Assembly: GCA_018830005.1 (NCBI GenBank)
Contig: JAHJTE010000003.1
Location: forward strand, 265,674-302,651
Direction of reading: 5' to 3'
Length of the DNA stretch: 36,978 nucleotides
From: Candidatus Omnitrophota bacterium
Lineage (GTDB): Bacteria; Omnitrophota; Gorgyraeia; JAHJTE01
A program made the position numbers and the translations under genes. The notes beneath the pieces were generated by a model, which saw nothing but the letters and a program-made list of their open reading frames with translations, had not been told where the DNA came from and ran no database searches. Positions 841 through 36,978 of this stretch are shown piece after piece. Position 1 is the stretch's first letter; each line of letters begins with the position of its first letter.

Positions 841-991
841 GCCTTTTATCTTAATTGATCTGAGTTTGTAAGAACTGATTTTGCAAGAAGATCTCAAAAA
901 TCGGTCATCCTTTACTCCAGTTAAGTTCGGCCCTCTCTAACATTGTAATTGTCTACACTGACTAATATTGATAACCGCTATAAAAAGGAAA

Positions 992-3169: not shown

Positions 3170-3175
3170 TAAATA

Positions 3176-4005: not shown

Positions 4006-4058
4006 GTTCCCTACACCTCCTTTTATATACAGACGATCTCGAAATGCTAAGTTGTGAC

Positions 4059-5814: not shown

Positions 5815-5826
5815 CTCTATTCATTA

Positions 5827-8800
5827 TTAGAGCAATCGTCCTAGGTAAAAATCTTCGATTATCGCAACAGCCTCCTGGTATGTGTCAACTATTCTATAAC
5901 GATTTAAATCCTCCTCAACTATAACTCCGGCAGGCAAAAGAGTCTTTTTAAACCAAGTATGCCAGGGCTGCCAGAAATCTCTTCCAAGTAAAACTACGGG
6001 AACCTGTTCTATCTTTTCCAGTTGCATCAAACATAATACTTCAAATAAAATATCCAATGTGCCTGTTCCACCCTGCAAGAAAACAAAACCCAAGCTACTA
6101 TGTCTGATAAGGGCCATCTTCTGTTCAAACGTATAGCTAAAGCCCAAGTTCATGCTCGCATGATTAGAATGATCTCTATTGCCTTTAAGCAATAAAGATA
6201 TGCATTGTGAATTAGTCCCTTTTACATCCTTATAACCCTGAGCGGCTGCAGCAGAAATACCCCTATGGCCTTTATAGATTACAGATATGTCACTATTGGC
6301 TAAACCTTTAGTTACCTGCCTTGCCTGTTCATACTCCGGACTAGTCTCGGAAACAAGTTCTGAACCTACAATACCAAAGGCAGGAACAACCTTCTCAATT
6401 CTCTTCAAAGTCCGATATAGATCTCTAATTACCTGCTCAATGTCAACATTATTATTAGCATTTAACTTCTCTAAACAAGCCTCATCTTCTAAATATCTAA
6501 GTATTCTCTGACTAGAATCTAAAACAACGAATAAATCTTTCGGCCTCTTTCTCAATAAACCCCGTTCAGACAAATCTCTCATTCGCTCTTCTAATCCTTG
6601 ATAGAATTTTCTACTAACATTATCAAACAAGACCAAGGGAAAATCATTGATATGGCCTTGATCCTTTAAGCTAGCTATTTCAAAAAATTCATCTAAGGTT
6701 CCAAAACCACCCGGCATACATAACGCGCCAACGCTTAAATCAATGAACGCTCTTTTGCGGGCGAATAAATACTTAAACATTAAACCTATATCAACAAATT
6801 CATTGCCTTCCTCCTTCGGGCATTGTATTTGCAAACCAACAGATGGCCGAGAAGTCGCAACACTGTTAGCCGCCCGCATCACTCCCGGGCCTCCGCCAGT
6901 AACTATAGAGTAGCCATTACCATCTAACTTCCTTACTAAATCTTGAGTATCATTATAAATCGAATCAGCCTCACCAACACTAGCTGAACCAAAAATAGAT
7001 AATGCTGGATGTATTCTTCTAATTTGATTTTCATACTGCCTTAATTCTCTAACAATATCCTGGATAAGTCTTGAAAGTTTAGCATCATTTAACTGCCCTA
7101 AAAACTGAACTAAACTTCCAGGCATATCTACACTTGGCCTGATAAATATCCACAATGTATCATATTTATCTTTGACAGTGAGTCTTATAACTCTCCAGCC
7201 GCGCTGGGCCATAAGTTTATATACCCGGCTAATCTCCTCATATCTTTTATCATCCAGAACCGCAGGAAAGAGATGAAAATGTACATCAATGCCGGGATAA
7301 CTATCAAAAACTTCAGCCAGTAACTCTGCGCGCTGCCTCTCTGACTCTGAATTTCCTAACTTAAAGCCCATATCCTCAGGATAAAGGTATCTAATAGCTG
7401 CATCCGAGACTATGATTGTTGGAGATTTGCTGCCTTCAATAACTTTATGCATAAAATCGATATCATAAATATCACCAGGTCCATCAGGTGGGAAATAATT
7501 AAAACCCTCATCAGAATAATCAGCGATGTTCCCCGCTAAATCTATTGCTATATATTCTCCAGCATAATCCTCTTTTCTTAGCGCCTCATATAACCTAAAT
7601 CTAGTTTCCGGACCGAGTTCAATTATAGTAGCTGCGTAAGCCATAGCCTTAATTAAATCTTTAGACAAAATCTCCCAAGTCAACGGGTCTGCCACATCAG
7701 TTATGCTGTTAAGTGTATATGTCTCAATATCAGCGGGTTTTTCTGATACCCCGCCGTTGCGGGGGTCGGAAGGCTGAAATACCCTAATTATTCTGCGGAT
7801 CTCTTCAGGTGTAATAAGTCTGTCTCTTCCTTTTCTTAATTTTTCTGACATCTCTGAAACTACAGGATCGAGCTCCTCGCTTGGACCCGCAATTTCCTGG
7901 CCGTATTGCCTTAACAACTCTAAGACAAAAATGCTGAATCTCATCCAAGGCCCCTTTTTAACAATCATTAGTGCCAATCGAAAAAGCCTAGTGTAGTCAA
8001 CCGACTCTAATTGCTCTATAATCCACTGTAATTGAGTTCGTGCGCAATAGTGGTGCTCTCTTGTGCGTAAAACTAGAGCAAAATCCTTTTTGAAACGACC
8101 ATATTCTAGTATGACTTGAGACTCTTCGATATCTTCGCTCCAACCTATTTGTTCAAGAATAGAAAAGCCTCCCAAATCGCTTATAATTTCACTAATGAAG
8201 CAGTCACCAGAAAAAATATTATGGTCAAGTTCATGGGCGCATGTACTTACAAAATAACTAGTAGCAAAACTTGTACCCTTAATATAGGGAATGCCAAATA
8301 TAAAATAAGAAGACGCGTTATCATACTTCTCACTAAAACAAGCTTGAATTAGAATTTTATATACTAAAAGCCTATATTCTTCTTTACTAATTAAAGAGAT
8401 TAGAAGGTTCTGACGAAATAGTAATATTGATAGCAGAACTTTCGTAAGTATCTTATCTCTGTCTTTACTAGCTAAAATAGCATCCATCTTGCCTAAGCCT
8501 ACTAATGTTTGTCTTGCTCTTTCTAAGTATCCATCTATATTAGTTCCTTCCATATTGATAAGATAAGAGCATTCTTCCTCTAAATCCTTAAGCCAAACTA
8601 AATCTCTTTCATTAGCTATCAAGATATTTAAAGAATTAATGAACCATTCTTCATTATTTTCAAAACCTTTCCCTACTATCTCTAGGTCAATATGCCTGGC
8701 TAATCTTTCAAATTCATCTATGCCGAACTTATAAATACGCACTAAATTATGAGAAAAAGCGGCATTATTTCTACTAAATGCGTAACGCATCCTATCTCTT

Positions 8801-11800
8801 CCAAAAAAGTTAATCAATCTAGCACATGTCTCTTTAAACTCTTCTTCAGTCATCTCTGAATAAACCCATCTGAATGTATAAGCACTCATAAAGTAATCCA
8901 AAGAGCCTTGCTGTGGTAAATATATTTCTGTATCATTCCCACTCCTATACAACCCCAACCCTGCATCATGCAGCATCATCCTTATTCTCTTACCCACCGG
9001 TGACTCTCCCACCGGCTCTTGGTAGTAGAATACGTGGCCGTCGGTGGAGCCGGGAATATCGCCGTCACGAGAATCAAGAAGTGAGTCTTCATAAGTCTTA
9101 ATTATCTCTAACTGTCGCGAGAGGAGCCAATGCTCGCAGATATCGTATTTATCAGTATCCATTAGCCTTAGATCTCTGATTTCTGTCTCAATCCTTGCCT
9201 TTAGCTGACTTAAGGCATTTGGCGTCTTTCGTCTTCTTCCTCTTGGGGTGAAAACTTCCTTTTCAAGCAACTCTCCTACAATCTTGCGTTCATCGCTATT
9301 AAGTTTCCTGCACGCTAATGCTCTATGATTAAGCTTCCTGCGAGAAATTTTACCATCGCTATTTGTTAAAAATAAAAAACCGGTTACATTATTGTCTCCT
9401 TGAGTATACACTCCCAATAAACCCCAATTCAATCCAGCAGCCCTTGCTTGAATCTTTATCATTTGACCGTCAAGTTTATATGATATAGACAAATAGGACG
9501 TTATTGTAGATTTGCTGAATAATCTTACAAGGCAAGCCCCAATTCTTTGGTGGGAAGTAGCCTTTCTTTCGATATAACCTTCGGGAAGCTTACTTGTAAA
9601 TCTGGAATTAAACCAATCATTCAATTGTTCCTCGGTACTTAATCGCTTCTTCAGCTCAAGTATTGTCTCACCAGGTTGCATTTTCTCTATACTTTTAACT
9701 TTTCCATTTTCTAATTCCACAAATTCTCTTCCTATTGGTACTTCACTTTCGTTAAAAACAACAATAACGCAATAATTATCTCCTCTCTCATCAATCCCAG
9801 TGTAGCCTTTTCTATTAGCATATTTTTTGTAACCACTTAGAGCGTTCATCGTTGGAATAATATAGATAGCTCCATTCTTATCAATCCAGATAGGCAGCCA
9901 TTGCGGAACCCTGCCTTTGACATTTGAAGCAACAAAAGCCTGCCAGTCTTTTCTTGCCTTTTTAACATTCTTATTATCTTCTTTTTCTATTTCAAGAATT
10001 TTCTTTGCTTCTCCTACGTCGAATTCTCTCTTCAGTAAATACTCTCTTGCCTTCTTAATCCAATTTCCGATAGTTAGATCTGAGTATTTTTCTCCATCCT
10101 GATTTCTTATACCCATATCATAAAGTATGTATGTGATCTCCTCTTTTGTGTGAGGATTTCCATCTTCTAAACCACAAAAGAAACTAAAGGCCAAAGCCTT
10201 ATTCGGCTCTATAAGAGCATAATCACCTAAATATTCTATTAATCTAGCTCCTCTTTCAGTCACATCCTGATCCCCATCTTCCTTAGCTTCCTTTAATTTA
10301 TATGCCTCTAGAGAAATTTCGCTTAAGAACATCTCTCCAGCTAGTAGCTCTCCTCCCTCAACTCGTCTCTCATCATCAAGACTTACTTTATCCCGCTCTA
10401 TACTCTTACCAATAAACGCAGTATATATGCCGTCTTTAATCATAGGGGCTAGAAATGTGCTTAATTTTGTATCCTGGGTGAAGTCATACCTTTTCTTGCC
10501 CTTTAAAATTTCTGTCAGGCAACAAATTCCTGCAACAAGTAATTCCTCTTCATCATAGAGGCCTAAAAGAAACCCAATTCTGGGGGTTGAATGAATTATA
10601 TTCTGAATAAGCCCTTTATTTTCCTCCACAAATTGCACTAAAGCCTCCTGGTTGCCGATTTCGATTTCTCTATACAAACGTCTCCTTCTCTGTTCTCCTG
10701 GCTCTATATATCTCAGAAGTAGCTCTCCTGCATCTCTGACTCTTAAAGGAGATTGGTTAAGTAACCAAACAAAAGCATTCTCTGCTTTCTCTACTTTATA
10801 CTTGCCTGCCAACTCTCTAAAAACATCTTTCAGCGTGCTTACATAATGGCGTCTCTTCTTGCTAGGCAACTTGCTTTGCCTGATAATCTTCTCTAAAGTC
10901 CTAAATAGATAAGAGTATTTTGCTCCTCGGCTCATCTCTGGAGTTTGATCCTGCTCTCCTTCAACATCAATCTCATAGTTCAAAACCCAGTCAATATATC
11001 TATCTATAGCTCTTACCAGCGCCTCCAGATCGCCCCTTCTAAGCCACTCTTGCAGCATCCCTCCTGATACCCCGCCGTTTTTGGAGGCAATCGCTGCCTT
11101 TCCTTCTTTCATATTTTTCCTATACTCTTCAATAATCTCCTCCTGTGAATCAGGAATACCTAAATCGCTCAAGAAACTTTCGTCTAATTCCTCAGATCTT
11201 TTTTCGTAATACAACTGAATAAATCTCTCAGTCAAATATAGTCTGCGCGCTGGACTCTTTAATATTTCATACATAATGTCATCAGGATGAGGGCATTGTT
11301 TGGCGATAGCAATAAAATCTGGCTCTATCTCTAATGTTAGCTGATAGAGTAAATAAGGCTCGAATGCCAGAAAATAAATCAAAGGATCATTTTTTGAAAT
11401 ATCAATGATAGTGGTAATATCTTCATCGTAAACATTTCCAAAACAAGGAATTGCCGTGCAGTAATAATATACATTTCCGTCACAATTTACAGTCACTGTC
11501 TGTGGTAAATAACAATAATCTACGTCTTGTCCATAATAATCTGTTCTTTTTCCATTAATAAAATTTTCTGTTGTGCCATAATCCCCGAGATAACATTCCT
11601 CATTTAAAAGTTCAGCGAATCCTAACCTGCTAACAAAATCTACACCTACAATAAATCTATACTCTCTACGATTTTTAATTAGGGTCCAGTAGATAGTTCT
11701 AACTACTTTCTGTTTTTTTCCATTTCGGCCTCTTATAGATATCTTCTCTTCTACTTTAGTTTTAACAGCAAAACCTCTCCTTTTTAATTCAGACTTCAAA

Positions 11801-32800: not shown

Positions 32801-35800
32801 TTATTTCTTCTAAAATCCTCGAAATCTTTCCTGGTTAAACCTAATTTATAAAATACTGCTACTAAGGCATCTATGTAGGAACCATTAAAGCAAGAGACAG
32901 TATCTTTATCCATCACGCTAGCTAATTCCCAAATTAGGAAATGGCCTCCTGTTATATACAGGATACTGGTCTTTAAGACCTCTTTTTCTCTATCTGATAA
33001 GTTCTTCAGATTATCATATCTATCTATAATATCCGGCCTATATTTGCCAAGAAAATGTCTCGCATTCTCTATGGATTTCTCAAGAGTTGACCAGTCCAAA
33101 GGAAAATCAAATCTAGTTAAGTTAAGTTCAGGGAATAAATCAATAAGAACACCAATGTGAGAATTGTATTCAAGGTTAGTCCTCTGATCCCTGGCACCAG
33201 AAAGTCTCCAATTATCAAAGCAACGCTTGGTTATTCTGCAGACGTCGTATCTTAAAGCCGCCTGTTCCTGAATCGACAGATTCTTAAAGTTAGTATATCT
33301 TTCTATAATGTCAGGTCTGTATTTGCCAATAATATCCCGTGCGTGCTTTAGTGTGTTTTGCGCAATTCTATAAGGCCATGCATCTGAATCAGGCAATTCT
33401 AGCTCTAGGCCTTGTTCAGTTAGAAGATGCGATACAGAGGCAACATTGCCTTCATTATCAAGGACTAGTTTATTTTCACCAATTTTTTCTCTGATTTTTT
33501 TACCCTCTCTTAAATACACACCAACAATTACTTCATTATTGCTGCTCTTTAATACCCCCCAATATACTTCTTGCAGTGCATAAGGCAGATAGCCGCCCAG
33601 GACCTTGCCAGCAAAAATCATATATATGTTTCCTAAGGCATCCACCCGAGCCGGAACAAGCCGTGGATAAGGTCTTCGACGTATACTCTTAAACCACTTA
33701 CTGCATCTAGACCCAAGCTCTATGCGCATAATATATTCTTGAGGGCTTTCATAAACTCGTGGTCGATCAGTACCATTTTTCACTGAAATTTCAGAGCCGT
33801 TGCGTCTAATTCTATAGTAGCGCTGATATGCTAACTCTGCTCCCCTTGTACTTAATCTATAGAATCTTAATATAAACCAGTCTCTGCCTCTCTGGCCCGC
33901 AGCAATCCTTATCTTTTGGCCTCTTGAGTGCTCTGGTATTTCAAGTCTAAAATTATCATTTATTTTTATGTCAGAATTAAAAATGTCCTCGATTGGTTCT
34001 GGCTGTTCTACTTTAGCACCTCCTAAGATGAAGGCCCATAATTGTTTAGTGAATCTTTTCCTGAGTGCCTTTTTGATTTTTCTGGCTTGTTTTTCTTTCT
34101 CTCTTCTACTTAAAAATTCACTATACCCGTCTTCCCCATAAAGATATCTTGCAACTCTATCTATTGCCTTCTCTATAAGTATCCGGATATCTTCGCGGCT
34201 ACGACCACCCATTTCTCTTCCAATCTCAACAAGGCTATTATCTTTAGACTCTAGCTTCTTAGAAAGGGCACATCTTTGAAGTTCCGTAAGTTTGGCCTTT
34301 GATAAAATCTCTGCTAATTTTCCCTCACGCTGCATAACTTGAAGACTAGCCCATGGATCTTTAGCACTAGGATCTTGAACTTCGTCTATATCGCCTGTTC
34401 TGTAATATCGCTTTATATTGGAAGAGGCTATACAGGAGGAAACATCTGAAAGCCTAAGTAGTCCAGAAGCGGTCTTAGCGTCCACTCTCAGATAATCCAT
34501 GATTTCTAATTGCGTTGGTTCTTCTAAGCCTTCCTCTAAGCCCAGCATTACTTTAAGTTTTATAACAGCTCTTTTTAGATTGAGCTCTCTATAAGGAGTA
34601 AATCCTAGAAAATCATATACTTGCCCTAGAGTCTGATACCTTGCATAATCAATGAAACTTTTGCCTTTGCTGTAATCAAAATATTTAAATGCTACTAATC
34701 TTAAGGCCTCACGTATAAAGTCCTCAAATCTCCCCTGGGTTATTCCTAAGGAGTATATTCTACTTTGAACCAACTTATACCCGAATTTAAAATAAATAAA
34801 TCCTTCTGCGTCTCTAAGATATAAATTACCCAACTCCTCTAATGCCTGCTCATCAGCGTCTCTTTTATAACGCCTAAGTAAGATCTGTGCCTGAATGGTT
34901 TTGTTGTCTATGCGACATACCAAACCATCATAAGTCCAGCTGCTATTCGGATGAAGTGCTGAATGTAAATTTAGCCGTCTAAAGCATGCACCCTTTAAGT
35001 AATGCGCAAGGGGATGTCTCATCTTTTGAGCGTTGCCATTACCATTAATCTCATCTAAAACATTGGGCTTAAAATATAAGCTGTTTATTTTAAACTTCTG
35101 CTCTAAGATAGCTTTCAAATTTAGCAATGTTGCTATTTGCCAAGATGCCTCTACTTCAGCAACAGCCTTAGAATCACTCCTTCTATATCCATTAGTCTTA
35201 ATATCAGAGACTAAAAATGAACTGGCTTCTTTGCCTTCAATATTTACAAACATACCAGTAATGCGCCCATATGAACCATTGCCATTAGAATGTGCCAAGG
35301 CTTTATTATCTTGAAAAGGATAGACGTCAATATATATTTTACCATTAGCATTTCCAGGCTGAGTTGCCTTAAGTCTTGCCTCTGTTCTTATATCTCCATA
35401 ACCCCATTCCAATGCGGGGTTTGCCTTTATTGCTGCTCTTAAGGTCTGTAGGGAATTTCTCATACCTTTCTTAGCATTTAAACTAGCAAGCACCCCAGCA
35501 AGAAACACCTGTTGGCTGGAAAAATAACCAGAAACAAAAGACTGAATATCAGGATTAAGTGAGAAAATGATTGATGCTTGATGGTTGATATTTGAGAAGA
35601 AAGGAAGAACTTGCGAGAGGTAATTTGTTACCGATGAGAAGAATTGACCGATAACTAATGCTGGTGGTGCCTGGGGCTGCAGTGTGTCTGTAAGTATTCC
35701 CTGCGTATGGCTGATTTCAAAACTAAATAAACACGTCAATAAAAGCAAAGATAATATTAATGGCGATTTAACAACCAGACCAAGACGTTGGGTATTTTTG

Positions 35801-36978
35801 GATTTTGTTGCTTTGGAACCAGGTGAAGATTTGACAAGGGCCTTAGTTTTTCTTGAGGGCCCATCTCTGCCATATTTATTTCTATATGTAGTATCTCTCC
35901 TGTTGAAGACTGTAATTTCTCCTTCTCCCCTAAATTCAACTTCATTTTCGCCTATCTTAGTTCCTCTTCTTATACAGGTTCCTGCAAGGGAATAATCTTT
36001 CCTAAGATAAACTCCAAAGATTACTCTAGCCTTATCGCTATACAAAGGCCTATAAACAACATCTGCAAACAAATAGCGCTTATATCCACGCAGGAATTTC
36101 ATAGAGCCCTTCCATTCAAAAAGAGGGATACTACACCAAACACCTATTACTCCAGGCACATCTTCAAGACAGGGTTTTGTTCGTTTTCCTTTAAACCATT
36201 CAAAAACAGCTCTCCTTGCCTTAATTCGGCTACGATATTCTTCTCCAGTCTCCCAGATTCTAGGACTTTTACCTGGCAGAAAACAACGCAATTTTACTTG
36301 TTTCTTAGCTTTCCTTTCAATAATATAGTATTGACGATATAATATCTCTTCTGTCTTCGGATCAAGAAATCTCACCATTAAGTAGTTAGTATCCCTCTCC
36401 TCAGCAATAATGCGAATATGCCTGCCTTGAAGATATTCTGGTACTCCAATAAAGAGACCTTTACCTAAATATAAACTTGTATTAAAATAACCTTCGATTG
36501 GCACTAAATCTTCTTGAGCGTCATTTATGATAATTGATGCCCACCGCAGAGCCTCTTCTCTGATTGACCTCTTGAGCATACGAGCTTTCTCTTCATTTTC
36601 AGAAAAGGCATTAAACCATCTCCTTCCATAGAGTGAAATTAGGACTCTTTTCCTTGCTTTATTTCTAATCTGCCGTACTCCTTCTGAGGTATTGATATCA
36701 ATTTGCTCTATAATTTCCCGATATTTTCTACCTGCCAGATATGCCTCTAGAACAATTATTTCTCTCTCAGTTAAATCAGCTATTGAGAGGGCCTGTTGTA
36801 ATTGACCTCTCTCATATTTATCTCTAAGTATAGTATTTGCGTCCACTGCATTTGGATCAGGAAATGCATCTATTGAACCTGTAGCGTGATATTCTTTGAT
36901 TGCTGCATTAAGTATATTATTGCCAGGCTCTCCAATGCCAAGTAGACGACAGGCAATATCCCATCCTACATCTAAATA
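5827..36978 (-). CDS. Giant multidomain membrane-anchored protein (at least 10,383 aa; likely 5'-truncated by the window)
   Basis: ORF track gives 10,339 aa from a GTG at 36844-36846. My reading of the 44 codons 36847-36978 finds no in-frame stop. Ends in TAA TAA TGA at 5821-5829. Recognisable domains along its length argue that it is real. Confidence 0.95.
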   Translation of the reverse strand, partial: YLDVGWDIACRLLGIGEPGNNILNAAIKEYHATGSIDAFPDPNAVDANTILRDKYERGQLQQALSIADLTEREIIVLEAYLAGRKYREIIEQIDINTSEGVRQIRNKARKRVLISLYGRRWFNAFSENEEKARMLKRSIREEALRWASIIINDAQEDLVPIEGYFNTSLYLGKGLFIGVPEYLQGRHIRIIAEERDTNYLMVRFLDPKTEEILYRQYYIIERKAKKQVKLRCFLPGKSPRIWETGEEYRSRIKARRAVFEWFKGKRTKPCLEDVPGVIGVWCSIPLFEWKGSMKFLRGYKRYLFADVVYRPLYSDKARVIFGVYLRKDYSLAGTCIRRGTKIGENEVEFRGEGEITVFNRRDTTYRNKYGRDGPSRKTKALVKSSPGSKATKSKNTQRLGLVVKSPLILSLLLLTCLFSFEISHTQGILTDTLQPQAPPALVIGQFFSSVTNYLSQVLPFFSNINHQASIIFSLNPDIQSFVSGYFSSQQVFLAGVLASLNAKKGMRNSLQTLRAAIKANPALEWGYGDIRTEARLKATQPGNANGKIYIDVYPFQDNKALAHSNGNGSYGRITGMFVNIEGKEASSFLVSDIKTNGYRRSDSKAVAEVEASWQIATLLNLKAILEQKFKINSLYFKPNVLDEINGNGNAQKMRHPLAHYLKGACFRRLNLHSALHPNSSWTYDGLVCRIDNKTIQAQILLRRYKRDADEQALEELGNLYLRDAEGFIYFKFGYKLVQSRIYSLGITQGRFEDFIREALRLVAFKYFDYSKGKSFIDYARYQTLGQVYDFLGFTPYRELNLKRAVIKLKVMLGLEEGLEEPTQLEIMDYLRVDAKTASGLLRLSDVSSCIASSNIKRYYRTGDIDEVQDPSAKDPWASLQVMQREGKLAEILSKAKLTELQRCALSKKLESKDNSLVEIGREMGGRSREDIRILIEKAIDRVARYLYGEDGYSEFLSRREKEKQARKIKKALRKRFTKQLWAFILGGAKVEQPEPIEDIFNSDIKINDNFRLEIPEHSRGQKIRIAAGQRGRDWFILRFYRLSTRGAELAYQRYYRIRRNGSEISVKNGTDRPRVYESPQEYIMRIELGSRCSKWFKSIRRRPYPRLVPARVDALGNIYMIFAGKVLGGYLPYALQEVYWGVLKSSNNEVIVGVYLREGKKIREKIGENKLVLDNEGNVASVSHLLTEQGLELELPDSDAWPYRIAQNTLKHARDIIGKYRPDIIERYTNFKNLSIQEQAALRYDVCRITKRCFDNWRLSGARDQRTNLEYNSHIGVLIDLFPELNLTRFDFPLDWSTLEKSIENARHFLGKYRPDIIDRYDNLKNLSDREKEVLKTSILYITGGHFLIWELASVMDKDTVSCFNGSYIDALVAVFYKLGLTRKDFEDFRRNNWIKRYGWKDGIAQGIGNVREVLSRETPHIIEAYDNLSRLSEEEKSILMQWIYQISSAHFEVLGLSSARDDRKAPYFCGSHIDCLIKVFSGLPLDRDKFNPRPLPASKETQTTNPKQLISLAKLALILCTVLVAWLFSFETGHTQEILTDILQPQAPPLYLVNTIVHSFVPLSFISYLTPTLSILSSLKDVDLLLSRLLDSLPLALSPAMKGFLQHISPYLGAWAILNLLFAVYDTFSASDKKAGQRFSIRLFLKNFGRLISTHFSICFVTAVIISGVMFNFFPLSIFENILLIAFGLACIAIVVCGIRQPILEKRRHNPEYRAKKIFEDIFGEIPESEKTILVLKKIYKYIDGANQHIQDLRKETFIKKKRIFPKEYDWIGALRQSFKLIRKHKISKKINKVAKQKPSVSEIVTDLKSSLKQLKSFISKNTHVREGEVDLKLNELEGLLKDLLIRLTEYAIYLRTGKWQSFAGVFDEKTDTNSTSMDRLLVSGVEEKRIASVNEVDLHIHSSFDNGDLSPIDIVSQALKKGLKAIAIVDHLKDGFSFTAFREALKAVKGTSLEIIPGLEIRTKDQDSMRDMLVYFPDLQEFKENMQDLIQTQPKRYSSVQEVIDWAHRFGGVVIYAHPGAFGKKKEDASDEKIFELFKRGLDGLEIDHKLYRTRDRIHLLALIEKWNEEHPNDQKTYTIGSDYRSSIYKGYPCEIGVGWTGRKGHPNVRHYSYEEIIPPLKNKSKHKDGNRGFITLGSLFLIIAVGLILVPTIWNLVFDILPNWDTSSTGVVFLAAMNDNRQKISPRQLPRNLLETYDVPPNHIRSILNKGVVKTVLPKFSPKEEVRILDLANLTDMSFDISGFRLIFYYYDRSERQDNLLNKVDAVSGLGQESILVIYMPCLDKIHFKNLRRVSIYPEIVEDLAIYERKSTNNRVMPSLPFTREAKRQNYDQALAMLKDINSLHRLKAILLALAIDGGFQALAYRYCKAFLSEILGKGNNETRKELRDYIQMLLGNKSLVINKVFRIVAITQIKKLDNDLIHGLILSFWLTIGIVDLFSSASGQAQTLNLAGPGSFHTALIIIALELLVFTCIAVCTHRSLDDSQKVILVVDNTEIMLDKEKDREFVGIGGTGLGRTYDAIADVTMPLATDKYLIDDQEPFRFSVGPCVFVIIHNHKNKRTYPIHKRRVELDEAIRLIDIAYEDMGNGEEIEVHAGGLALFDDFQLEHNRQLFAFRGRIINHLASKGYKNIRLLFPSLCTTFTDITFDTKNSSAVYCFGFYSYSEDLQTPSQRITNKKLIEIQSQKATQDLPSLDSLQPLGTDSPLTAGLGGILISNKAYDHIRTAMHPLHLVQVHDISDSAEALGKQFEFTDVNKLLLLKWLDLRWLDKVFKKSHQNNFVLIGGAIEYCLLTTFKHISKAFNRIFSSEKDICEIHIPFYLDISRPWPDSLLYCIRDLAFQNKGIVKRADLELLAQTISKDQREYLDREEFNLKYSFYFDGSTRLRNGSNCDFKDEQIRVYFWSDVKAMSASGQFDAYLRNNTQAERKRSSMLFGTMFLMLAVALCALGLALLAQNSELILRLASLVYGEFCRTTQDFVAHNTLIAGMLAGGVNLKRLTCLADTKHTQKANPSLKRLIRNALAVAETDTVKMKELIKILKLYLGGSNYQIDRFVRAKLRELSKAFPDFIEDIPERLLPTEEELEEYKRRLRNDHIIFIDTLTGAEVGEISLPGGFKRPKKMIEDKIDELMDEKGYNNLLINGVITDEDGKIRLWDYNSSVYFASARTSLMITRGFDSTKLIRSASIIEDQAYIKLCATAINNLPKQIEIKLKSLSGYPIILRNIFYRERLNIDKKGNIRGKARTISAGELEEILTACLESEFVYNEIFDMQGSIIATYLYKFPEDIKLSENSAIISTGNNGQFIFGAKRKYYFTHIINGLILVFSEGLIPKETIEISNLSVSGRRRAAVYLQKNLGEQDNLIWRDEGIEWSEVFKELDDGSIIRAKNLEVKKPARIHFNYEMYNLDSNKFKYGDSAVAWFVKSNGRLLLLYYMKLEDYEACHFDAYVGEYVSACSGGNVFETFYHRFPTPAQIQTMFKQYNTDELRIENRLTTLEGTLKICTSKGSGDYIDYWIGLKKEPLAVWMDKYSGLPQLAMRLKDLRAANYDATAYKLSVKEGRGLVQKVTLKEFLVEEIPLAKHVRLELKRRGELLGRLLVSPIEEVLSKYPHLIKVALDLFTPLGRIDDIGDIGTLSNNLKERLGPLDSLRGVNDLGRIREIFNRLSEDLGCESISILKEVYGAEKDLSIKLIIFILLRNQLDLLKFGNHSDEIVNLRIDMHEAIESEINNIKILLEKVVDYREVVDLIIRYSQLMMAEQIDIEFRKGLFNYRNSKEIEEIGSAICDKTLEYTASSKKEILEIYYQLIPDSDWDRRVANLTKLIFELRDATTLDSIEVLAESFNKVIDRDLLWLPILASLCEEEKDLQTKLVIFSSLENRLLLASSDVKKEGHNQTRFERMFSCLIEKKFVEVNSLLANANSWNKVLALTAKYMYLKRVVDINISLLKGDIYLPNIDHLQEIEAALPERAFKYNTTDGIRKIIKTFSKELFVAVGENSIVRAKRLERRIDACFWLAARIEIYNKNKVRHAFMELPSKWQAIFYVRIKERVPIVVTGSLFNATFTSISKRLGETIRGLTYAENITPQLRRDFKEVLSEVCSDLDDDYLRNIYRDFLYEYKEEQIDRLFKGAKKYFTPRHNCLVNQVVKEVRRQRRLLLVRIRQVAQGRNSNTPFDKTMADHLLRPLAESCSRSLLDFRTEDLRTLYLRFAFNFEYKELARIFGLSQRAIMDRINLVVSKLMKDSGFFKDSVIEGLSIIFKRLAENDGYKADVEKALNISCIEILRKRAMQIGYELPLSNGNGYMGNGNGRGVRLIKYSRRVLRLLEKTNNVSKVSEGFGLSELDLAQEAFDVYQRNFVSQGSNTVGSRIVILQLLDRLYDKLKIIEPVQVRLWKQGLLGDIELHLKQIEAILRKADPTEFERALKIVGEVEFTFNLANVLDYGTIHRLENRLALIKKEIRRKKGTIPAGIESLRSEIKYDLSRAFALVDNGCLNGNSYNLFKIILKVIANKILTLGRLEDDFDSYQSNRTYYIPELRLLAACIQINMAREKGSNFASLRFKDMDTATILEPCAMGVLKANGQMYKEYEDRTYYELGKAWAGGHVVRYKDLPKKVKDRIDPEIARTLEQENFYFILGTTEPNIWYFTQDIFLNAVTIHKAKGKVKAGAYIPVTLLGLSVSEKVINYELSHLQGAKEDKTESEALAKEVQEAWQSDHIASLKRLTCLGDTQHTQKANPPLKHLIQNALIQAQRDDRMKEFIPILKSFLDGSNYEIDRFARKILLGLKPRFYRQLADVQPRSLRAGLTREDLIELAEDDKLVFIDAETGKKLGKLPALRAGNKFKKYPESRDEMINRLMDDEGHSGLYVLGVTVNRHGRLLRVLGKSPSVLFAHAKTAILITKNSAGEKLIRKTLILEDCSEDSEYIDKCLKAVEDLRGKGNIATKYLKGYARILGNLCVNERFSLDREGNVKWKNQTIQFSELKGLFQDYLRQGEIYSEIFDIDGNLISVYRAQFPKNIKLTKNVVITSTDNQGRFNFPCNEQLRKTGTVDDLILVFNVDTAPLEFIAVSNIDKFETSLESHRLTYLQRNITEEDKLICIGDRKTEVYRELDDHSVVRHMNLKAKERKGMVGIWFNFVFYILDRDKFEEGDRMVAWFEKVNGEFWLLYCQKLKDYLVLRPDIDVFEYAVTFDEHGNVLNSTKKGFPSPDEIKEMFNKYGAKYIRSEGAYTNSRGHLRRQHRVDGVDCNFHRNIGIKNEPLALWFDKLSGLPVLAVKLKDLRSANFNTTVYKLSVKDSKGLVEAQRLRTFLKEDILLAITIRLAFERNERILLRLSSYSIKEVFKKYPNLATIIANIDTNELRRRMLIRKVRRGDKAASAQFCEENDPLIRWIVKRSPAIKAFLKFTTMEDILQMGRYFLQYIITDERYAFDAGFNFSSYAVPALRGLILNGLKEQYSLDFNAEASFKKTDRWQSRAFCSLSKFEVERASLARHNQLESMLDRGNDSIVAKARECLADLSIEFPYRVMAFNMKLGLEDDVVYSYGEIAAYLFGLGVKGENGDQFTGETIRLWFNFVKEKLLIKLCGNAQAKKTIEKDKKRRDNKKEIAREWDSYFKSNMKGDPPLGLYILVGVAGYIWISKNLQITDYKEHAGAEVFVDIDKNDISEGCCAVNVFNGRGTSIGRHYVEVKKGKVIKCLDMQISQRIADFKERLRVRDKWANWMQLPFERKPPEEALVRIVYSGGRRRGAGIAVPVPNNSSVHISLPPELIGQELKVEVKGSGFNWHLWRVATLRDVVVVGGIIRKDNNKGGLIHNKLNNNLLILSRLNKEERNNILALFEDEVLAVRGRRSKGIKALEKLQSTIEGEVGDLRQSIGNGYDICQHWLLLRQLEIIKIYKASNGHSVPRPCGMGVLKADGQMYKEYEDRTYEELETAWDDGRVVGVRNLYSNFFVQIEPYQEILKALEKRGVFIVLPDPKKDPREMPSVWYKSLKIFLAAVTIKKSKGKVKSGIYIPLTLILLLVKFKRVGLLKEILKHELDNLKGKKENKHRSERLAEQVLSVWKEEERERRRSRKQAARLAEAILKPGSKITIHKLKLEEQNALARAAHEGDGQAQDALRQLLYFYAETLAYKWQWTFSCKDILGAFDKAIPKIITNYNPDRPNGSNLKSLAYKKFGQIRIDLWRKASRRRESPLDESLEQPSLAMCEEELEYILDELLRPVKIRGGNPGRDRLIFKIRIMGRLCGKEVSYREIGVHFNLEKSSVCIQYSQVSKCVISHYAKKPLPRSLVGRLDIERWRALLNYFIQNSKNNNSLSVGPKKTSGKVKGNSRQYFPEDPSTADMFFGSIRKAHYRKEERSSENKRKGPPVKWTRQILSEAFRNPPTEIKDVRSSSQWEDAGYRGIIKVAIRIYGSWHKFLESQGIKPIERKEWTEQTLSEAFRNPPTEIKDVRSSSQWQEAGYRGMVKVTFRIYGSWLDFVKSQDIQPIEKKGRIPKWTEQTLSEAFRNPPTEIKDVRSSSQWQEAGYGGMVEAVRRIYGSWLDFVKSQGMKPCCESCVYQKFTQHYDNPKVVKDILNGKTKVKSEDMSLEQQVKLAKEVQKGNLAAYQALMYSLEWLAKKISKEYRLKYFNLDSDQRLSACLKAIPGIVARFDPEKWDKTIGAYAYKRFMGSIDDKARSELRREKRENTSSLDRSLNEKDERGRRPQTLLDKLIPEEQLPELTQQEAETRLKELLKPINASERNKQMFILAALHRSGIINMNQEEIARQFNCSPSNISRNYKSITRKLGLISNNSHLARSTHEDVESPQIKRHHHFPEAPTAADMFFGPVRVAHLRRESSRKKTSGALYYFGGGKACGRASMRSALGGKGANLAEMARLDLPVPPGFTIPNKIVRRYDENRNSLPKGVSELIFQGVSEIERRTKKVFGHVKKFGDLKNPLFLSVRSGAEESEPGRYKTYTKIGLHRITLDAYGREIGDMHRAYLDFLLYFMSYIAECVSQDDAGFDEGVNKIVDEIPSLRENYYMDRYDILPKLISLDKLKEMVLKAERLFEQKTGKKFPTPKRQLMLAVKSVIQSSYFVCGAACNIQAYVFGNIGDEKSGSGVIFTRNPLNGEKGIYGSFKFNAEGSEVVGRLKIVDNILCKWDRPEGLDALQKYLPQQYLELEEFALLLEKHFYEIQDIEFTIQNGKLFILQTRGNEKFSTPLARVRILLDFVKEGLISEEDALGRFREEEYEDCSNFDVPSSVRLEHLWWTKTYLESPVLRKDLERKPIASGIIVLPGIVSGPIITDCTNPKGRKGIAVIFNVMEFERLQTITPEAIERRISGAISYGGGFADYIVVRMRGAQKIIPHLTRINLQIHSNTVKFSRTNAEVKIGSWLILDGNTGHVYKGKLSSKDLEDSEITKVNKGMIRKRDSELHPYYDTLLKWIIILEVDEILIREIKKRGQWSWEEDIILEKGLTLSNEELFNILKEGNTLGALADKIRGDNKKVAIFRKELQLAIKKIKKENATRGAIKDKLALELKKRLLSEQVCGNSPQNGGVSGGMLYRLAKQGNANELARIMKAYLEYHLQQIRECKFGIIELDFPCLVSSLVSIIDSKPVLLPILKKAFEILLEDYNVQDRHLIFELFFEYESHEILRLGEVLMSDIYKQRLSWAVTWDYFEIAAHPELLLSAWLANMMSPLAWKIIKRKTKGRSTAQSLRSLEGHLKHYYVNTFSTSDRPEGCRWGWTTIDFKKAALGDEVVGQIIDRLDQFFSVDEGGYGGFSTTTAYRQGYRARMKNEIIELMHAYRRIRHDNKAEGKCASFATLDAAFLSLISIFTQVPFEKIFIFGTQIHFAVFIDIDEGYVFSNLYWYSKKKFKELSENIDWYREFAAPCTDSFVSFSGIFNSVLGISTMSKDTVVKFYKRLSEFFGAEFNIPDLSGIRFIDRRGAPINIQDFDSAETLQKYAFNLAEEYFEYEAALYAFRSLKVKYPEVYAAKALEETHTKDNARFMYSLDDAIRFVRNIQGFKSVFGSLDRIMLPDEVLAFVTGSHRDKALLLWTLLYYMNERNMEDRELMCVVFAEDDSFVYVNGTFISTRTFEKSIEIPESIKYIFDEKGHYDCNIFNGHILMATDAKLVYSEKDNDEEDAEDPQNKRHHHSQETPTTTDIFFGPIRKAHWPGYSADNENTEDGSNDYPRRLKALMRREKYFYCLTGKGVDLERREVVKRFSAKVDLVGPLAFLKHMFTFQVTRECNTWCPHCLFVYCKPQRKLNWKQKEKMYRDLLEFAENDPRFKEICIGGGEPLSFAKEDVLFLLENSRKPNILQTNAKFASTPGSARDSLSEVYKIIKAKTDATSDYYFILNTSLDSFHQRTIPISNIANLVQVIAEDFPEISLVIRSLHEPDVHKRLGVLKSELKRRGFAVKTKVEEKISIRGRNGKKQKVVRTIYWTLIKNRREYRFIVGVDFVSRLGFAELLNEECYLGDYGTTENFINGKRTDYYGQDVDYCYLPQTVTVNCDGNVYYYCTAIPCFGNVYDEDITTIIDISKNDPLIYFLAFEPYLLYQLTLEIEPDFIAIAKQCPHPDDIMYEILKSPARRLYLTERFIQLYYEKRSEELDESFLSDLGIPDSQEEIIEEYRKNMKEGKAAIASKNGGVSGGMLQEWLRRGDLEALVRAIDRYIDWVLNYEIDVEGEQDQTPEMSRGAKYSYLFRTLEKIIRQSKLPSKKRRHYVSTLKDVFRELAGKYKVEKAENAFVWLLNQSPLRVRDAGELLLRYIEPGEQRRRRLYREIEIGNQEALVQFVEENKGLIQNIIHSTPRIGFLLGLYDEEELLVAGICCLTEILKGKKRYDFTQDTKLSTFLAPMIKDGIYTAFIGKSIERDKVSLDDERRVEGGELLAGEMFLSEISLEAYKLKEAKEDGDQDVTERGARLIEYLGDYALIEPNKALAFSFFCGLEDGNPHTKEEITYILYDMGIRNQDGEKYSDLTIGNWIKKAREYLLKREFDVGEAKKILEIEKEDNKNVKKARKDWQAFVASNVKGRVPQWLPIWIDKNGAIYIIPTMNALSGYKKYANRKGYTGIDERGDNYCVIVVFNESEVPIGREFVELENGKVKSIEKMQPGETILELKKRLSTEEQLNDWFNSRFTSKLPEGYIERKATSHQRIGACLVRLFSKSTITSYLSISYKLDGQMIKIQARAAGLNWGLLGVYTQGDNNVTGFLFLTNSDGKISRRKLNHRALACRKLNSDERKIVGELLEKEVFTPRGRRRKTPNALSQLKARIETEIRDLRLMDTDKYDICEHWLLSRQLEIIKTYEDSLLDSRDGDIPGSTDGHVFYYQEPVGESPVGKRIRMMLHDAGLGLYRSGNDTEIYLPQQGSLDYFMSAYTFRWVYSEMTEEEFKETCARLINFFGRDRMRYAFSRNNAAFSHNLVRIYKFGIDEFERLARHIDLEIVGKGFENNEEWFINSLNILIANERDLVWLKDLEEECSYLINMEGTNIDGYLERARQTLVGLGKMDAILASKDRDKILTKVLLSILLFRQNLLISLISKEEYRLLVYKILIQACFSEKYDNASSYFIFGIPYIKGTSFATSYFVSTCAHELDHNIFSGDCFISEIISDLGGFSILEQIGWSEDIEESQVILEYGRFKKDFALVLRTREHHYCARTQLQWIIEQLESVDYTRLFRLALMIVKKGPWMRFSIFVLELLRQYGQEIAGPSEELDPVVSEMSEKLRKGRDRLITPEEIRRIIRVFQPSDPRNGGVSEKPADIETYTLNSITDVADPLTWEILSKDLIKAMAYAATIIELGPETRFRLYEALRKEDYAGEYIAIDLAGNIADYSDEGFNYFPPDGPGDIYDIDFMHKVIEGSKSPTIIVSDAAIRYLYPEDMGFKLGNSESERQRAELLAEVFDSYPGIDVHFHLFPAVLDDKRYEEISRVYKLMAQRGWRVIRLTVKDKYDTLWIFIRPSVDMPGSLVQFLGQLNDAKLSRLIQDIVRELRQYENQIRRIHPALSIFGSASVGEADSIYNDTQDLVRKLDGNGYSIVTGGGPGVMRAANSVATSRPSVGLQIQCPKEEGNEFVDIGLMFKYLFARKRAFIDLSVGALCMPGGFGTLDEFFEIASLKDQGHINDFPLVLFDNVSRKFYQGLEERMRDLSERGLLRKRPKDLFVVLDSSQRILRYLEDEACLEKLNANNNVDIEQVIRDLYRTLKRIEKVVPAFGIVGSELVSETSPEYEQARQVTKGLANSDISVIYKGHRGISAAAAQGYKDVKGTNSQCISLLLKGNRDHSNHASMNLGFSYTFEQKMALIRHSSLGFVFLQGGTGTLDILFEVLCLMQLEKIEQVPVVLLGRDFWQPWHTWFKKTLLPAGVIVEEDLNRYRIVDTYQEAVAIIEDFYLGRLL
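5830..7030 (-). other. Tandem LOG-family (TIGR00730-like Rossmann) domains at the giant protein C-terminus
   Basis: Copy 1: SIFGSA, TGGGPGVM, FARKR, PGGFGTLDE (6688-6714). Copy 2: QGGTGTLDI (6049-6075), degenerate. Confidence 0.85.
7140..7740 (-). other. Class I SAM-methyltransferase-like domain
   Basis: IIELGPET, YIAIDL and GDIYD spaced like motifs I-III. The glycine-rich motif is imperfect. Confidence 0.4.
7790..8700 (-). other. HExxH zincin-like metallopeptidase domain
   Basis: AHELDH at 8221-8235 with a downstream Glu (ISEIISD, 8188-8190) as candidate third zinc ligand. Confidence 0.5.
9088..10692 (-). other. Sigma-70-like domain plus beta-rich domain, copy 2 (535 aa)
   Basis: GNQEALVQFVEENKGLI...YDFTQDTKLSTF (region 2), GLEDGNPHTKEEI (region 4), then a domain ending YDICEHWLLSRQLEIIK. 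Paralogous to 19294-20904. Confidence 0.75.
11400..12312 (-). other. Radical SAM domain with Twitch/SPASM-like tail
   Basis: CNTWCPHC (CxxxCxxC, 12253-12276), GGGEPL, LQTNA, SLDSFH, and C-terminal YC...VNCDGNVYYYC...FGNV. Confidence 0.88.
12650..13700 (-). other. Transglutaminase/papain-like Cys-His domain followed by a degenerate second copy
   Basis: GKCASFATL (Cys 13576-13578) and IHFAVFI (His 13477-13479). Second motif PDEVL...GSHRDKALLL resembles GDCxDxAxLL with the Cys lost. Confidence 0.5.
14700..16455 (-). other. Truncated pyruvate phosphate dikinase-like module (ATP-grasp plus phospho-His swivel domain, no PEP-binding barrel)
   Basis: LGGKGANLAEM, LPVPPGFTI, LSVRSGA, VFGN...SGSGVIFTRNP, QDIEFTIQNGKLFILQTR, LDGNTGHVY. 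Confidence 0.9.
16624..17232 (-). other. Sigma-70-like domain (regions 1.2-4)
   Basis: LEQQVKLAKEVQKGNLAAYQAL, ARFDPEK...IGAYAYKRFMGSI, SSLDRSL, NQEEIARQFNCSPSNISR. Confidence 0.82.
17332..17877 (-). repeat. Three tandem in-frame repeats (183-195 nt; 61-65 aa) resembling homing-endonuclease-associated repeats
   Basis: Units start at Trp codons 17875, 17692 and 17497. Consensus WTxQxLSEAFRNPPTEIKDVRSSSQWxxAGYxGxxxxxxRIYGSWxxFxxSQ. Near-identical DNA. Confidence 0.92.
18160..18702 (-). other. Sigma-70-like domain (regions 1.2-4)
   Basis: LEEQNALARAAHEGDGQAQDAL, NYNPDR...NLKSLAY, SPLDESL, VSYREIGVHFNLEKSSV. Confidence 0.78.
18799..19263 (-). repeat. Unknown module C, copy 2 (paralog at 22846-23265)
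   Basis: PCGMGVLKADGQMYKEYEDRTY...IFLAAVTIKKSKGKVKSGIYIPLTL...LKHELDNLKG. DNA 19201-19238 is identical to 23203-23240. Confidence 0.9.
19294..20904 (-). other. Sigma-70-like domain plus beta-rich domain, copy 1 (537 aa)
   Basis: GDKAASAQFCEENDPLI...FDAGFNFSSYA, GLEDDVVYSYGEIA, ending YDICQHWLLLRQLEIIK. Confidence 0.75.
20938..22824 (-). repeat. Unknown module B, copy 2 (629 aa)
   Basis: Begins LKRLTCLGDTQHTQKANP and ends LAVKLKDLRSANF...YKLSVKDSKGLV...KYPNL. Collinear with 26137-27984. Confidence 0.9.
22846..23265 (-). repeat. Unknown module C, copy 1
   Basis: PCAMGVLKANGQMYKEYEDRTY...IFLNAVTIHKAKGKVKAGAYIPVTL...INYELSHLQG. Confidence 0.9.
24259..24390 (-). other. Isolated sigma-70 region-4-like HTH
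   Basis: EDLRTLYLRFAFNFEYKELARIFGLSQRAIMDRINLVVSKL. Confidence 0.7.
26137..27984 (-). repeat. Unknown module B, copy 1 (616 aa)
   Basis: Begins LKRLTCLADTKHTQKANP and ends LAMRLKDLRAANY...YKLSVKEGRGLV...KYPHL. Confidence 0.9.
28950..29420 (-). other. CheD/deamidase-like Cys-His domain
   Basis: SVGPCVFVIIHN...YPIH (Cys 29323-29325, His 29272-29274) and EIEVHAGG resemble the CheD pattern GLGSCVxxxxxD...H...xxFGG. Confidence 0.45.
30600..31295 (-). other. PHP-family phosphoesterase domain (TrpH/YciV-like)
   Basis: DLHIHS, AIVDH, IPGLE, YAHP, LDGLEI, GSDYR. Confidence 0.88.
32329..32450 (-). repeat. Linker motif A, copy 2: hydrophobic helix + LFSFExxHTQxILTDxLQPQAPP
   Basis: 56/64 nt identical (hand count) to 35667-35730. 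Confidence 0.9.
32506..33369 (-). repeat. Three diverged tandem repeats of 93-105 aa
   Basis: KYRPDIIERY (33324), KYRPDIIDRY (33045), RETPHIIEAY (32730). Each is followed by NLS..E...L...I....F...L and ends Y/FxxSxIxxLxxxFxxLxLxRxxF. Confidence 0.85.
34150..34882 (-). other. Sigma-70-like domain with regions 2, 3 and 4
   Basis: DEQALEELGNLY, FDYSKGKSFIDYA, EEPTQLEIMDYL, LTELQRCAL...SLVEIGREMG.RSREDIRILIEKAIDRV. Confidence 0.85.
35662..35766 (-). repeat. Linker motif A, copy 1
   Basis: SPLILSLLLLTCLFSFEISHTQGILTDTLQPQAPP. Confidence 0.9.
36643..36774 (-). other. Sigma-70 region-4-like HTH
   Basis: LTEREIIVLEAYLAGRKYREIIEQIDINTSEGVRQIRNKARKRV. Regions 2-3 may lie upstream of the window. Confidence 0.75.

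Follow-up and report, generated by a model that had tools for sequence, protein, structure and literature searches.

Whether a bacterial protein of more than 10,000 residues works as one chain or is cut into pieces is the question raised by a 36,978-nt stretch of the Candidatus Omnitrophota contig JAHJTE010000003.1 (hereafter the window), most of which is occupied by one giant gene on the minus strand. Both preprints on giant genes of this phylum (West-Roberts et al., 10.1101/2023.11.21.568195; Nielsen & Lui, 10.64898/2026.06.07.730766) leave this point open. The gene strings together sigma-70-like units, enzyme-like modules, and orphan domains, and short conserved motifs recur between modules that are otherwise unrelated. 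We tentatively read its product as a membrane-tethered precursor that would be processed at these junctions, a reading that has to be weighed against that of an uncut scaffold.

A genuine gene of more than 10,000 codons

A single stop-free open reading frame (ORF) spans 5827..36846 and encodes 10,339 amino acids (aa) counted from the first in-frame GTG, with the stop codon at 5827-5829; in DNA of about 38% G+C, a frame of such length is too long to have arisen by chance. A public gene call on the 96-kb contig JBDRIX010000012.1 of a metagenome-assembled genome (MAG) at NCBI (GCA_043815545.1) likewise comprises 10,339 aa, and two independent assemblies are concordant on the gene. A groundwater metagenome of 2018 supplied independent Logan contigs that cover positions 17001-36978 at an even depth of about 80x with breaks at internal repeats only, and fragments of the gene with at least 99% identity are present in three further groundwater metagenomes. 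The single frame of more than 10,000 aa described in the original prediction thus stands, and the gene is genuine and chromosomal. The frame remains open for 44 further codons, up to the window edge at 36978. These codons align without gaps, at 39% identity (E=8e-8), with the stretch ahead of the internal paralogue N2, and this homology is colinear through the annotated start. Since, moreover, the GTG start lacks a Shine-Dalgarno-like sequence, in contrast to those of the neighboring genes, the coding region probably continues past the window on its 5' side.

An alternative explanation is that misassembly fused several genes into a chimeric ORF. All assemblies are short-read, the Logan contigs break at the internal repeats, and the 5' ~1.3 kb shows about twofold depth and a variant contig. 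However, the independent assemblies agree, the gene body is evenly covered by contigs that overlap across the breaks, the DNA of the internal paralogues is too divergent to mislead an assembler (the exception being a 195-nt tandem repeat), and the 31 kb lack any frame break, which together make an artifact exceedingly improbable.

The 5' region shows some variation of its own. Between 35650 and 36978 (aa ~1-400 plus the upstream frame) the Logan depth is 112-169x compared with 80x in the gene body; variant contigs carry half-depth single-nucleotide polymorphisms at 35950, 35979, and 36502-36519, one contig omits 36550-36820, and loose ends diverge at 35906 and 36644. There seems to be a second near-identical copy of this region, either at another site of the same genome or in a strain that occurs alongside.

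Sigma-70-like units

Seven sigma-70-like units had been predicted, of which four (S4 to S7) are robust according to hidden Markov model (HMM), profile, and, for S6, structural comparisons, while three (S1 to S3) appear partial or doubtful (positions in Table 1). The best-supported unit, S6, scores 58.6 bits against NCBIfam TIGR02937 (cutoff, 42.9) over model positions 8-161 of 165. Its AlphaFold2 (AF2) model, which was built with relatives (pLDDT 77) and is the only fold check made of the sigma units, retrieves sigma factors as all of its top 50 PDB matches, and the sigma-2 domain fits region 2 of RpoS with a TM score of 0.86-0.90 and a root mean square deviation of 1.4-1.5 Å. The paralogous S5 aligns with the profile of S6-type modules over 182 columns (hhalign 95.3%, E=2.3e-8). 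The S4/S7 pair matches a sigma profile (hhalign 91%) and, in region 2 only, SigF in the PDB (1l0o_C, E=3.6e-7), and S4 hits the NCBIfam SigF/G model at E=2.9e-5. Pfam alone gave signals below threshold for the sigma units. With respect to the weaker candidates, S1 is paralogous to the C-terminal (region-4) part of S2 and is probably a region-4 fragment cut by the window edge. Matches of S2 (Pfam Sigma70_r4, E=0.064; hhalign, 29 columns only, E=0.012) and S3 (Pfam Sigma70_ECF, E=0.0043; r4_2, E=0.0071; hhalign, 30 columns, E=0.009) are short and weak.

Membrane segments, enzyme-like modules, and orphan domains

About nine strong transmembrane (TM)-like segments are all located within aa 350-2925, whereas the final ~7,400 aa are free of them; the topology stems from a crude hydropathy scan. 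Several of the strong segments have K/R-rich N-flanks and neutral C-flanks, which is reminiscent of repeated signal-anchor sequences. The protein has no N-terminal signal peptide, and its N terminus is a helix-turn-helix (HTH). The membrane anchoring that had been proposed is consistent with these segments, although it would concern the N-terminal part only.

About nine enzyme folds had been claimed, which is an overcount: HMM searches recovered five, namely, a PHP-family phosphoesterase, a PPDK-like module, a radical-SAM module, and two LOG domains, and ten further modules had no Pfam match at lenient thresholds and no hit in PDB sequence searches. The PHP module also matches models of CehA/McbA, pAp phosphatase, and RNase RNM, and in the PDB the entry 3e0f (E=8e-9). 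The PPDK-like module covers positions 4-509 of the 865 positions of TIGR01828 and matches PPDK entries in the PDB; it consists of the ATP-grasp and swivel domains without the phosphoenolpyruvate (PEP)/pyruvate domain, and the alignment at the GGMTSH motif places a tyrosine at the catalytic histidine, which rules out a function as dikinase. In the radical-SAM module the cluster motif CNTWCPHC is found at aa 8191; its PF04055 match (26.6 bits, E=7.6e-6) is below the gathering threshold of 29.5, and matches to YydG and viperin models are weak. LOG1 is unambiguous (TIGR00730, E=1e-44, 152 bits with a cutoff of 96; PDB LOG structures, E=1e-35), and the motifs scored in both LOG domains, GGGxGxM and PGGxGTxxE, are intact in LOG1 and degenerate in LOG2. 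A package of nucleotide-handling effectors, as originally proposed, is therefore reduced to PHP and LOG. A reading as a defense system was also rejected, as the sole PADLOC match is a weak LOG-type one.

Family searches assign approximately one-quarter of the protein, and the remaining three-quarters are orphan sequence without detectable relatives. The N1 domain and the three ~95-aa repeats lack Pfam and family matches, respectively; the search with the ~630-aa C1/C2 module gave no relatives; and module F matches nothing in Pfam, NCBIfam, PADLOC, or PDB sequences. Self-BLAST of the giant protein revealed that its internal duplications are old (25-54% identity); they include the duplicated unknown domains noticed earlier. 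The earlier count of about 30 modules is a fair estimate, and their cytoplasmic-type character was borne out, including genuine sigma-70-family domains.

The array of 61-65-aa repeats is an exception to this age distribution. It is also a tandem repeat at the DNA level (195 nt x 2.9, 86% matches, positions 17332-17881), and since 37 of the 45 conserved residues use identical codons, the comparison argues for an array that was recently expanded or homogenized, in contrast to the other internal duplications.

Junction motifs between unrelated modules

Three motif families stand between unrelated modules of the giant protein, i.e., the TM junction, the FPExPxxADMFFGxxRxAH motif, and the NGGVSGGML motif (Table 1). 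Four linker families had been proposed, but two of the proposed motifs do not qualify: LKRLTCL..HTQKANP is the N-terminal end of the duplicated modules C1/C2, and CxMGVLKA is that of M1/M2. The two TM junctions share the same codon in 15 of 19 columns with identical residues, and all three copies of the DMFFG motif do so in 7 of 9 conserved columns (2.6 expected). Taken together, the junctions of the gene have identical codons at 67% of the conserved residues, compared with about 48% in the bodies of paralogous modules (controls that leave out the pair of LOG domains due to self-overlap) and an expectation of 40%. This excess points to recent homogenization or to a constraint at the nucleotide level. 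An internal ribosome-binding site at NGGVSGGM was considered and rejected, given that AGGAGGG precedes the ATG by 1 nt only and that the third copy lacks both elements.

Comparable punctuation is found in other long proteins, which are designated here by the numbers of our relative list. P0053 carries a similar NGVSGGM, P0052 has R-x-SASG 12 times, and P0010 has GA[AGS]SP six times; the frequencies of SASG (x12) and LALG (x6) in relatives are far above the shuffled expectation. In the 12 SASG junctions of P0052, all 24 serine codons are AGY (40% gene-wide) and 11 of 12 arginine codons are CGY (28% gene-wide), which results in the coding pattern CGY NNN AGC GCR AGY GGN. The recurring elements of P0050 (6,885 aa; DPL[FL][AT]LG..ALGM), P0059 (2,827 aa), and P0001, whose GVVL[AG]C.LP.DLFLL.P..GMI is found on both sides of a radical-SAM cassette, are hydrophobic and TM-like, and in these three proteins the TM helices themselves may be the module separators.

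Modules as cassettes in other giant and free-standing genes

Relatives were searched exhaustively with HMMER among 1.84 billion representatives, with aa 5300-6499 as the query. Only two subregions had any, the M module and the 61-65-aa repeats, while S4, its C-terminal domain, and S5 had none in this library. The giant protein itself was absent from the hits, and the library apparently lacks the longest proteins, so that the relatives found are a lower bound. A scan of viral contigs yielded nothing for S4, nor did scans of the metagenome contig collection with N1 and with S4/S7 or of the genome collection with the N1/N2 alignment.

One relative is P0001 (4,754 aa; L004, 93-14357) from an Omnitrophota MAG, the sole genome among the GTDB representatives in which a counterpart of the radical-SAM module was found. 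P0001 has four module types in common with the giant protein (PHP, radical SAM, the 61-65-aa repeats, and M), but in a different order. The radical-SAM modules are 39% identical over ~500 aa, and in each host protein this cassette is flanked by that host's own junction elements. P0010, P0052, and P0059 contain embedded sigma-70 modules that score above the curated cutoff and are preceded by the repeats known from the giant protein. P0052 (MDO8536491.1; Omnitrophota, 4,872 aa; L005, 5001-19619) is annotated only as "5-formyltetrahydrofolate cyclo-ligase," but holds two sigma-70 modules, MTHFS, and a PALP domain. Its gene is flanked by the housekeeping genes for FtsK, MiaB, RecA, RecX, and AlaS.

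The same unit also exists in free form. Stand-alone proteins of 400-800 aa, e.g., P0038 (410 aa), P0005, and P0002 (797 aa), consist of PF18780-like repeats followed by sigma-70 regions 2 and 4, as does the stretch of aa ~6316-6765 in the giant protein; they are independent genes, whereas in the giant protein the unit lies within a longer chain and a junction motif comes after it. P0038 ends at the position of the giant's DMFFG junction. As the order differs among relatives and stand-alone forms exist, the sequence comparisons indicate that the modules behave as cassettes, being both free genes and parts of giant genes. Modules move from giant gene to giant gene, and sigma-70-family regulators, including the [repeat]n-sigma family, have been recruited into them.

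A processed precursor or an uncut scaffold?

In the interpretation that we prefer, with a confidence somewhat short of even, the gene would have been built by fusion and shuffling of once-independent genes, sigma factors and their partner domains included. The protein would reside in the inner membrane with its string of modules at the cytoplasmic face, and this membrane-tethered precursor would be cut at the junction motifs, thereby releasing sigma-like regulators and enzymes in a fixed stoichiometry. This reading is preferred because conserved motifs turn up again and again between modules of unrelated kinds, the ends of stand-alone homologues coincide with junctions, and the shared radical-SAM module behaves as a cassette. 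Furthermore, it is doubtful that a mid-chain sigma unit of a 10-kaa membrane-tethered protein could assemble with RNA polymerase into a holoenzyme, from which it would be sterically kept, and such domains should need release to work. A small-scale precedent is provided by ECF52 (PMC5826349). The processed precursor of the original prediction accordingly gains indirect support, and no intact protease was identified for it.

The M module was considered as a candidate for such a protease. It comprises ~160 aa with the signature CGxGV ... RxPPxxW ... RFLxAV ... IYLP ... HExxHLxG ... ExLA, has no Pfam family, and is found in other long proteins of 2-7 kaa in up to four copies each (four in P0011, two in P0031), among them the Omnitrophota protein P0001. 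The AF2 model of M2 (pLDDT 92) has no significant PDB match, but its topology and weak top matches (BlaR1, E=0.96; selecase, E=3.8) are zincin-like. Many relatives retain the HExxH-like motif, but it is degenerate in both copies of the giant protein, so that an active zincin in the latter was rejected on the basis of the YELSH and HELDN motifs and the nonsignificant fold search. The M module is hence a candidate processing protease in the wider class, not in the giant protein. The sole intact HExxH of the latter, HELDH, belongs to the orphan module H.

Several further observations weigh against processing. Neither the giant protein nor its neighbors yielded an intact protease domain. The identical junction codons could stem from recent duplication or gene conversion rather than from function, and the punctuation is clear in some relatives only. 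S1 to S3 may be plain HTH domains, and by a literal hydropathy topology, the TM1-TM2 segment that holds S2 would lie outside the membrane. Finally, the PPDK-like module (His to Tyr), LOG2, and M1/M2 look catalytically dead, a state that is as compatible with a scaffold or with relaxed selection as it is with a precursor.

Nearly as likely is an uncut scaffold, i.e., one membrane-anchored polypeptide whose modules bind or organize, for example by providing a membrane tether for RNA polymerase, DNA, or nucleotides. In this reading, to which we give roughly one-in-three credence, the junction motifs would serve as structural linkers or be traces left by the duplication and recombination from which the gene was built. 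The degenerate catalytic motifs and the failure of the HMM searches to find a protease domain are in line with this explanation, as are the junction codons and the near-identical tandem repeat, which suggest ongoing intragenic duplication or conversion, and in the literature the TM-only class is treated as membrane-anchored proteins with cytoplasmic domains without invoking cleavage. Yet passive linkers are normally neither conserved in sequence nor recurrent between unrelated modules, and junctions mark the ends of stand-alone homologues. Moreover, a sigma domain with kilo-residue stretches to either side of it can hardly be expected to act as a sigma factor, and the intact motifs of radical SAM, PHP, and LOG1 argue for real enzymes. 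Much less probable is that the long ORF is a decaying fusion, a passenger in a variable region whose frame chance or weak selection would keep open and many of whose modules would be relics. Three-quarters of the protein being orphan, several degenerate catalytic motifs, the apparent duplication of the 5' region elsewhere in the genome, and a toxin-antitoxin pair and an AAA_14/DUF4143 gene close by would be compatible with decay, and integrative-element passenger genes are a surviving hypothesis in the 2026 preprint (10.64898/2026.06.07.730766). But 10,339 stop-free codons at ~38% GC cannot be maintained by chance, paralogues of 25-45% identity that are still in frame and alignable end to end imply long-term purifying selection, the key motifs of three enzyme modules are preserved, and near-identical sequence is present in four independent groundwater metagenomes.

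The original prediction had also considered that the precursor, or pieces of it, is exported to a host or to prey, in whose cell the sigma-like and nucleotide-handling modules would reprogram transcription. Omnitrophota do include host-dependent or predatory forms, their giant proteins have been linked to prey interaction (10.1101/2023.11.21.568195), and the flanks of the strong TM segments resemble those of repeated signal anchors. However, the N terminus is an HTH and not a signal peptide, HMM family searches of the giant protein found no SecA-like, C39, dockerin, adhesin, or toxin domain, PADLOC or effector-like matches are absent, and the TM-free C-terminal 7,400 aa are predicted to be cytoplasmic. 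The neighboring genes encode cytoplasmic PilZ proteins, a toxin-antitoxin pair, and sugar uptake rather than secretion machinery. An exported effector package accordingly finds no support here and is rated as improbable, marginally more so than decay.

If the precursor reading is extended beyond this gene, Omnitrophota giant ORFs would be polyproteins whose lineage-specific junctions, conserved in their amino acids and in part in their codons, serve as cut sites or as recombination sites for cassette swapping, and the 31-kb gene would amount to a stoichiometric, posttranslationally controlled regulon, a generalization that we consider speculative and more doubtful than either the precursor or the scaffold for this single protein. 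As concrete handles on the question of processing, DMFFGxxRxAH, NGGVSGGM, and R-x-SASG (12 copies in P0052) are candidate cleavage sites that are defined by sequence and predict specific neo-termini.

Relation to known systems

TM-anchored Omnitrophota giants with multiple enzyme and regulatory domains have already been described (Nielsen & Lui, 10.64898/2026.06.07.730766; West-Roberts et al., 10.1101/2023.11.21.568195), and the class of "TM-only, membrane-anchored, cytoplasmic-domain" proteins accounts for 46% of a catalogue of 916 Omnitrophota proteins. The term "candidate new system" was therefore too strong. The giant protein fits this class: it comes from the same phylum and from groundwater, has at least 10 kaa and no signal peptide, combines predicted TM helices with heterogeneous cytoplasmic-type domains including radical SAM, contains repeated domains that arose by old duplication, and is mostly unique in sequence; it also fits the "many distinct domains" architecture of the catalogue. 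It differs from the described giants in that the searches detected no domain of the SecA-DEAD, C39, S8, dockerin, or CAZyme types and that its TM-like segments occupy the N-terminal 28% only, whereas those of the class are evenly spread. The 2023 preprint raises possible cleavage by C39/S8 peptidases (10.1101/2023.11.21.568195). The words "sigma," "linker," "junction," and "transcription" do not occur in either preprint, nor do "polyprotein" and "cleav" in that of 2026 (10.64898/2026.06.07.730766), and the sigma-70 content and the junction punctuation with cassette shuffling appear to be undescribed.

For the membrane-tethered sigma factors of the ECF52 type (e.g., SCO4117 of Streptomyces coelicolor), release of the sigma domain by an unidentified protease has been proposed (PMC5826349). 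In these proteins, one polypeptide holds a sigma domain, the regulatory domain that follows it, a TM region, and one more domain, and the two N-terminal units of the giant protein (sigma-HTH, orphan domain, TM helix with conserved motif) are ordered like these parts. In contrast to ECF52, which has one sigma domain, a few hundred residues, and a distribution limited to Actinobacteria, the giant protein has at least four mid-chain sigma domains in 10 kaa; the domain after sigma is a zinc-finger anti-sigma in ECF52 and an orphan in the giant. Moreover, the best-supported units (S4 to S7) are far from the TM segments, unlike in ECF52.

Viral and eukaryotic polyproteins likewise join unrelated modules in one chain and are cut at short recurrent motifs that differ between lineages. 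The giant protein differs from them in being cellular and membrane anchored and in that no cognate protease was identified; if it is indeed processed, it would represent a rare cellular counterpart to the viral polyprotein strategy.

Table 1. Modules, junctions, duplications, and neighboring genes of the giant gene (window positions; residues of the 10,339-aa frame)
Feature	Residues (aa)	Window positions	Strand	Evidence or remark
Upstream open codons (44)		36847..36978	-	sequence comparison; homologous to pre-N2 segment
S1, sigma region-4-like HTH, partial	1-75	36622..36846	-	TIGR02937 positions 103-161, E=1.5e-4, below cutoff
N1, orphan domain	72-312	35911..36633	-	paralogue N2, self-BLAST ~30% identity, E=6e-23
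TM junction 1	352-396	35659..35793	-	K-rich flank, TM helix, FSFExxHTQxILTDxLQPQAPP
S2, weak sigma-like unit	706-900	34147..34731	-	region-2.3-like stretch + region-4 HTH
N2	902-1136	33439-34143	-	paralogue of N1
Three tandem ~95-aa orphan repeats	1156-1447	32506..33381	-	self-BLAST, 35-40% identity
TM junction 2	1462-1507	32326-32463	-	second copy
Hydrophobic block	1505-1664	31855..32334	-	hydropathy; 2-3 strong + several weaker TM-like segments
PHP-family metal-dependent phosphoesterase	~1850-2040	30727..31299	-	PF02811, E=1e-8; HxH intact
Further TM segment	2087-2124	30475-30588	-	hydropathy
Further TM segment	2376-2443	29518-29721	-	hydropathy
Further TM segment	2888-2925	28072-28185	-	hydropathy
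C1, orphan module, ~630 aa	2953-3579	26110..27990	-	~40% identity to C2, full length
S3, weak region-4-like HTH	~4100-4200	24247..24549	-	
M1	4516-4672	22831..23301	-	YELSH in place of family HExxH
C2	4673-5312	20911-22830	-	paralogue of C1
S4	5310-5853	19288..20919	-	sigma-70 region-2-like + putative region 4 + ~300-aa orphan C-domain
M2	5850-6030	18757..19299	-	motif HELDN
S5, sigma-70-like unit	~6045-6260	18067..18714	-	regions 2 and 4; S6 paralogue
FPExPxxADMFFGxxRxAH, copy 1	6284-6306	17929..17997	-	before 61-65-aa repeats
Three 61-65-aa repeats	6316-6530	17257..17901	-	weakly PF18780 "HNH_repeat"-like
S6, sigma-70 unit	6536-6765	16552..17241	-	regions 2 and 4
FPExPxxADMFFGxxRxAH, copy 2	6766-6788	16483-16551	-	before PPDK-like module
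PPDK-like module	~6800-7350	14797..16449	-	TIGR01828, E=5.5e-76; ATP-grasp + swivel only
NGGVSGGML, copy 1	7489-7503	14338..14382	-	after PPDK-like module
F, orphan module	7504-8090	12577..14337	-	
FPExPxxADMFFGxxRxAH, copy 3	8094-8116	12499-12567	-	before radical-SAM module
Radical-SAM cassette	8125-8587	11086..12474	-	CxxxCxxC intact
NGGVSGGML, copy 2	8587-8601	11044-11088	-	after radical-SAM module
S7, S4 paralogue	8714-9255	9082..10707	-	sigma region 2 + orphan C-domain
H, orphan module	9255-9690	7777..9084	-	HELDH at aa 9538
NGGVS, degenerate copy 3	9694-9701	7744-7767	-	after module H
LOG1, LOG/TIGR00730 Rossmann domain	~9920-10121	6484..7089	-	PF03641, E=5e-40; motifs intact
LOG2, second LOG-like domain	~10132-10332	5851..6453	-	motifs degenerate
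Duplication N1/N2	14-312 and 842-1136			self-comparison
Duplication C1/C2, ~630 aa	2953-3579 and 4673-5312			self-comparison
Duplication M1/M2	4516-4650 and 5850-5999			self-comparison
Duplication S4/S7, ~540 aa	5310-5853 and 8714-9255			self-comparison
Duplication S5/S6	~6032-6319 and ~6523-6799			self-comparison
Duplication of two LOG domains	C-terminal end			self-comparison
Three PilZ-domain genes, downstream		4498-5814, 4059-4439, 3676-4080	-	domain searches
HEPN/MNT toxin-antitoxin pair		2570-3583	+	MNT-type nucleotidyltransferase with N-terminal HTH, then HEPN protein

Source organism and gene neighborhood

The assignment to Omnitrophota, which the original prediction had only inferred, is confirmed by an ABC substrate-binding protein from the contig that carries the giant gene, this protein being identical to proteins deposited as "[Candidatus Omnitrophota bacterium]" (MFH1492445.1, MBU2541822.1). 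The three PilZ genes are probably cotranscribed with the giant gene, because they are located on the same strand and the gap between its stop codon and the first of them measures 12 nt without a terminator-like site. By eye, the long C-terminal part of the first PilZ protein (438 aa) looks ROK/HTH-like. An AAA_14/DUF4143 ATPase gene is located farther along the same contig, which outside the window also carries genes for GH94, an ABC sugar transporter, MFS, and GH2; no secretion machinery was present among the neighboring genes examined. No tRNA and no Rfam family was matched in the window. Within a stretch of ~1 kb (1-990) that has no ORF of at least 100 aa, a perfect 7-nt tandem repeat (GTCGTGT x 4.3) occupies positions 472-501.

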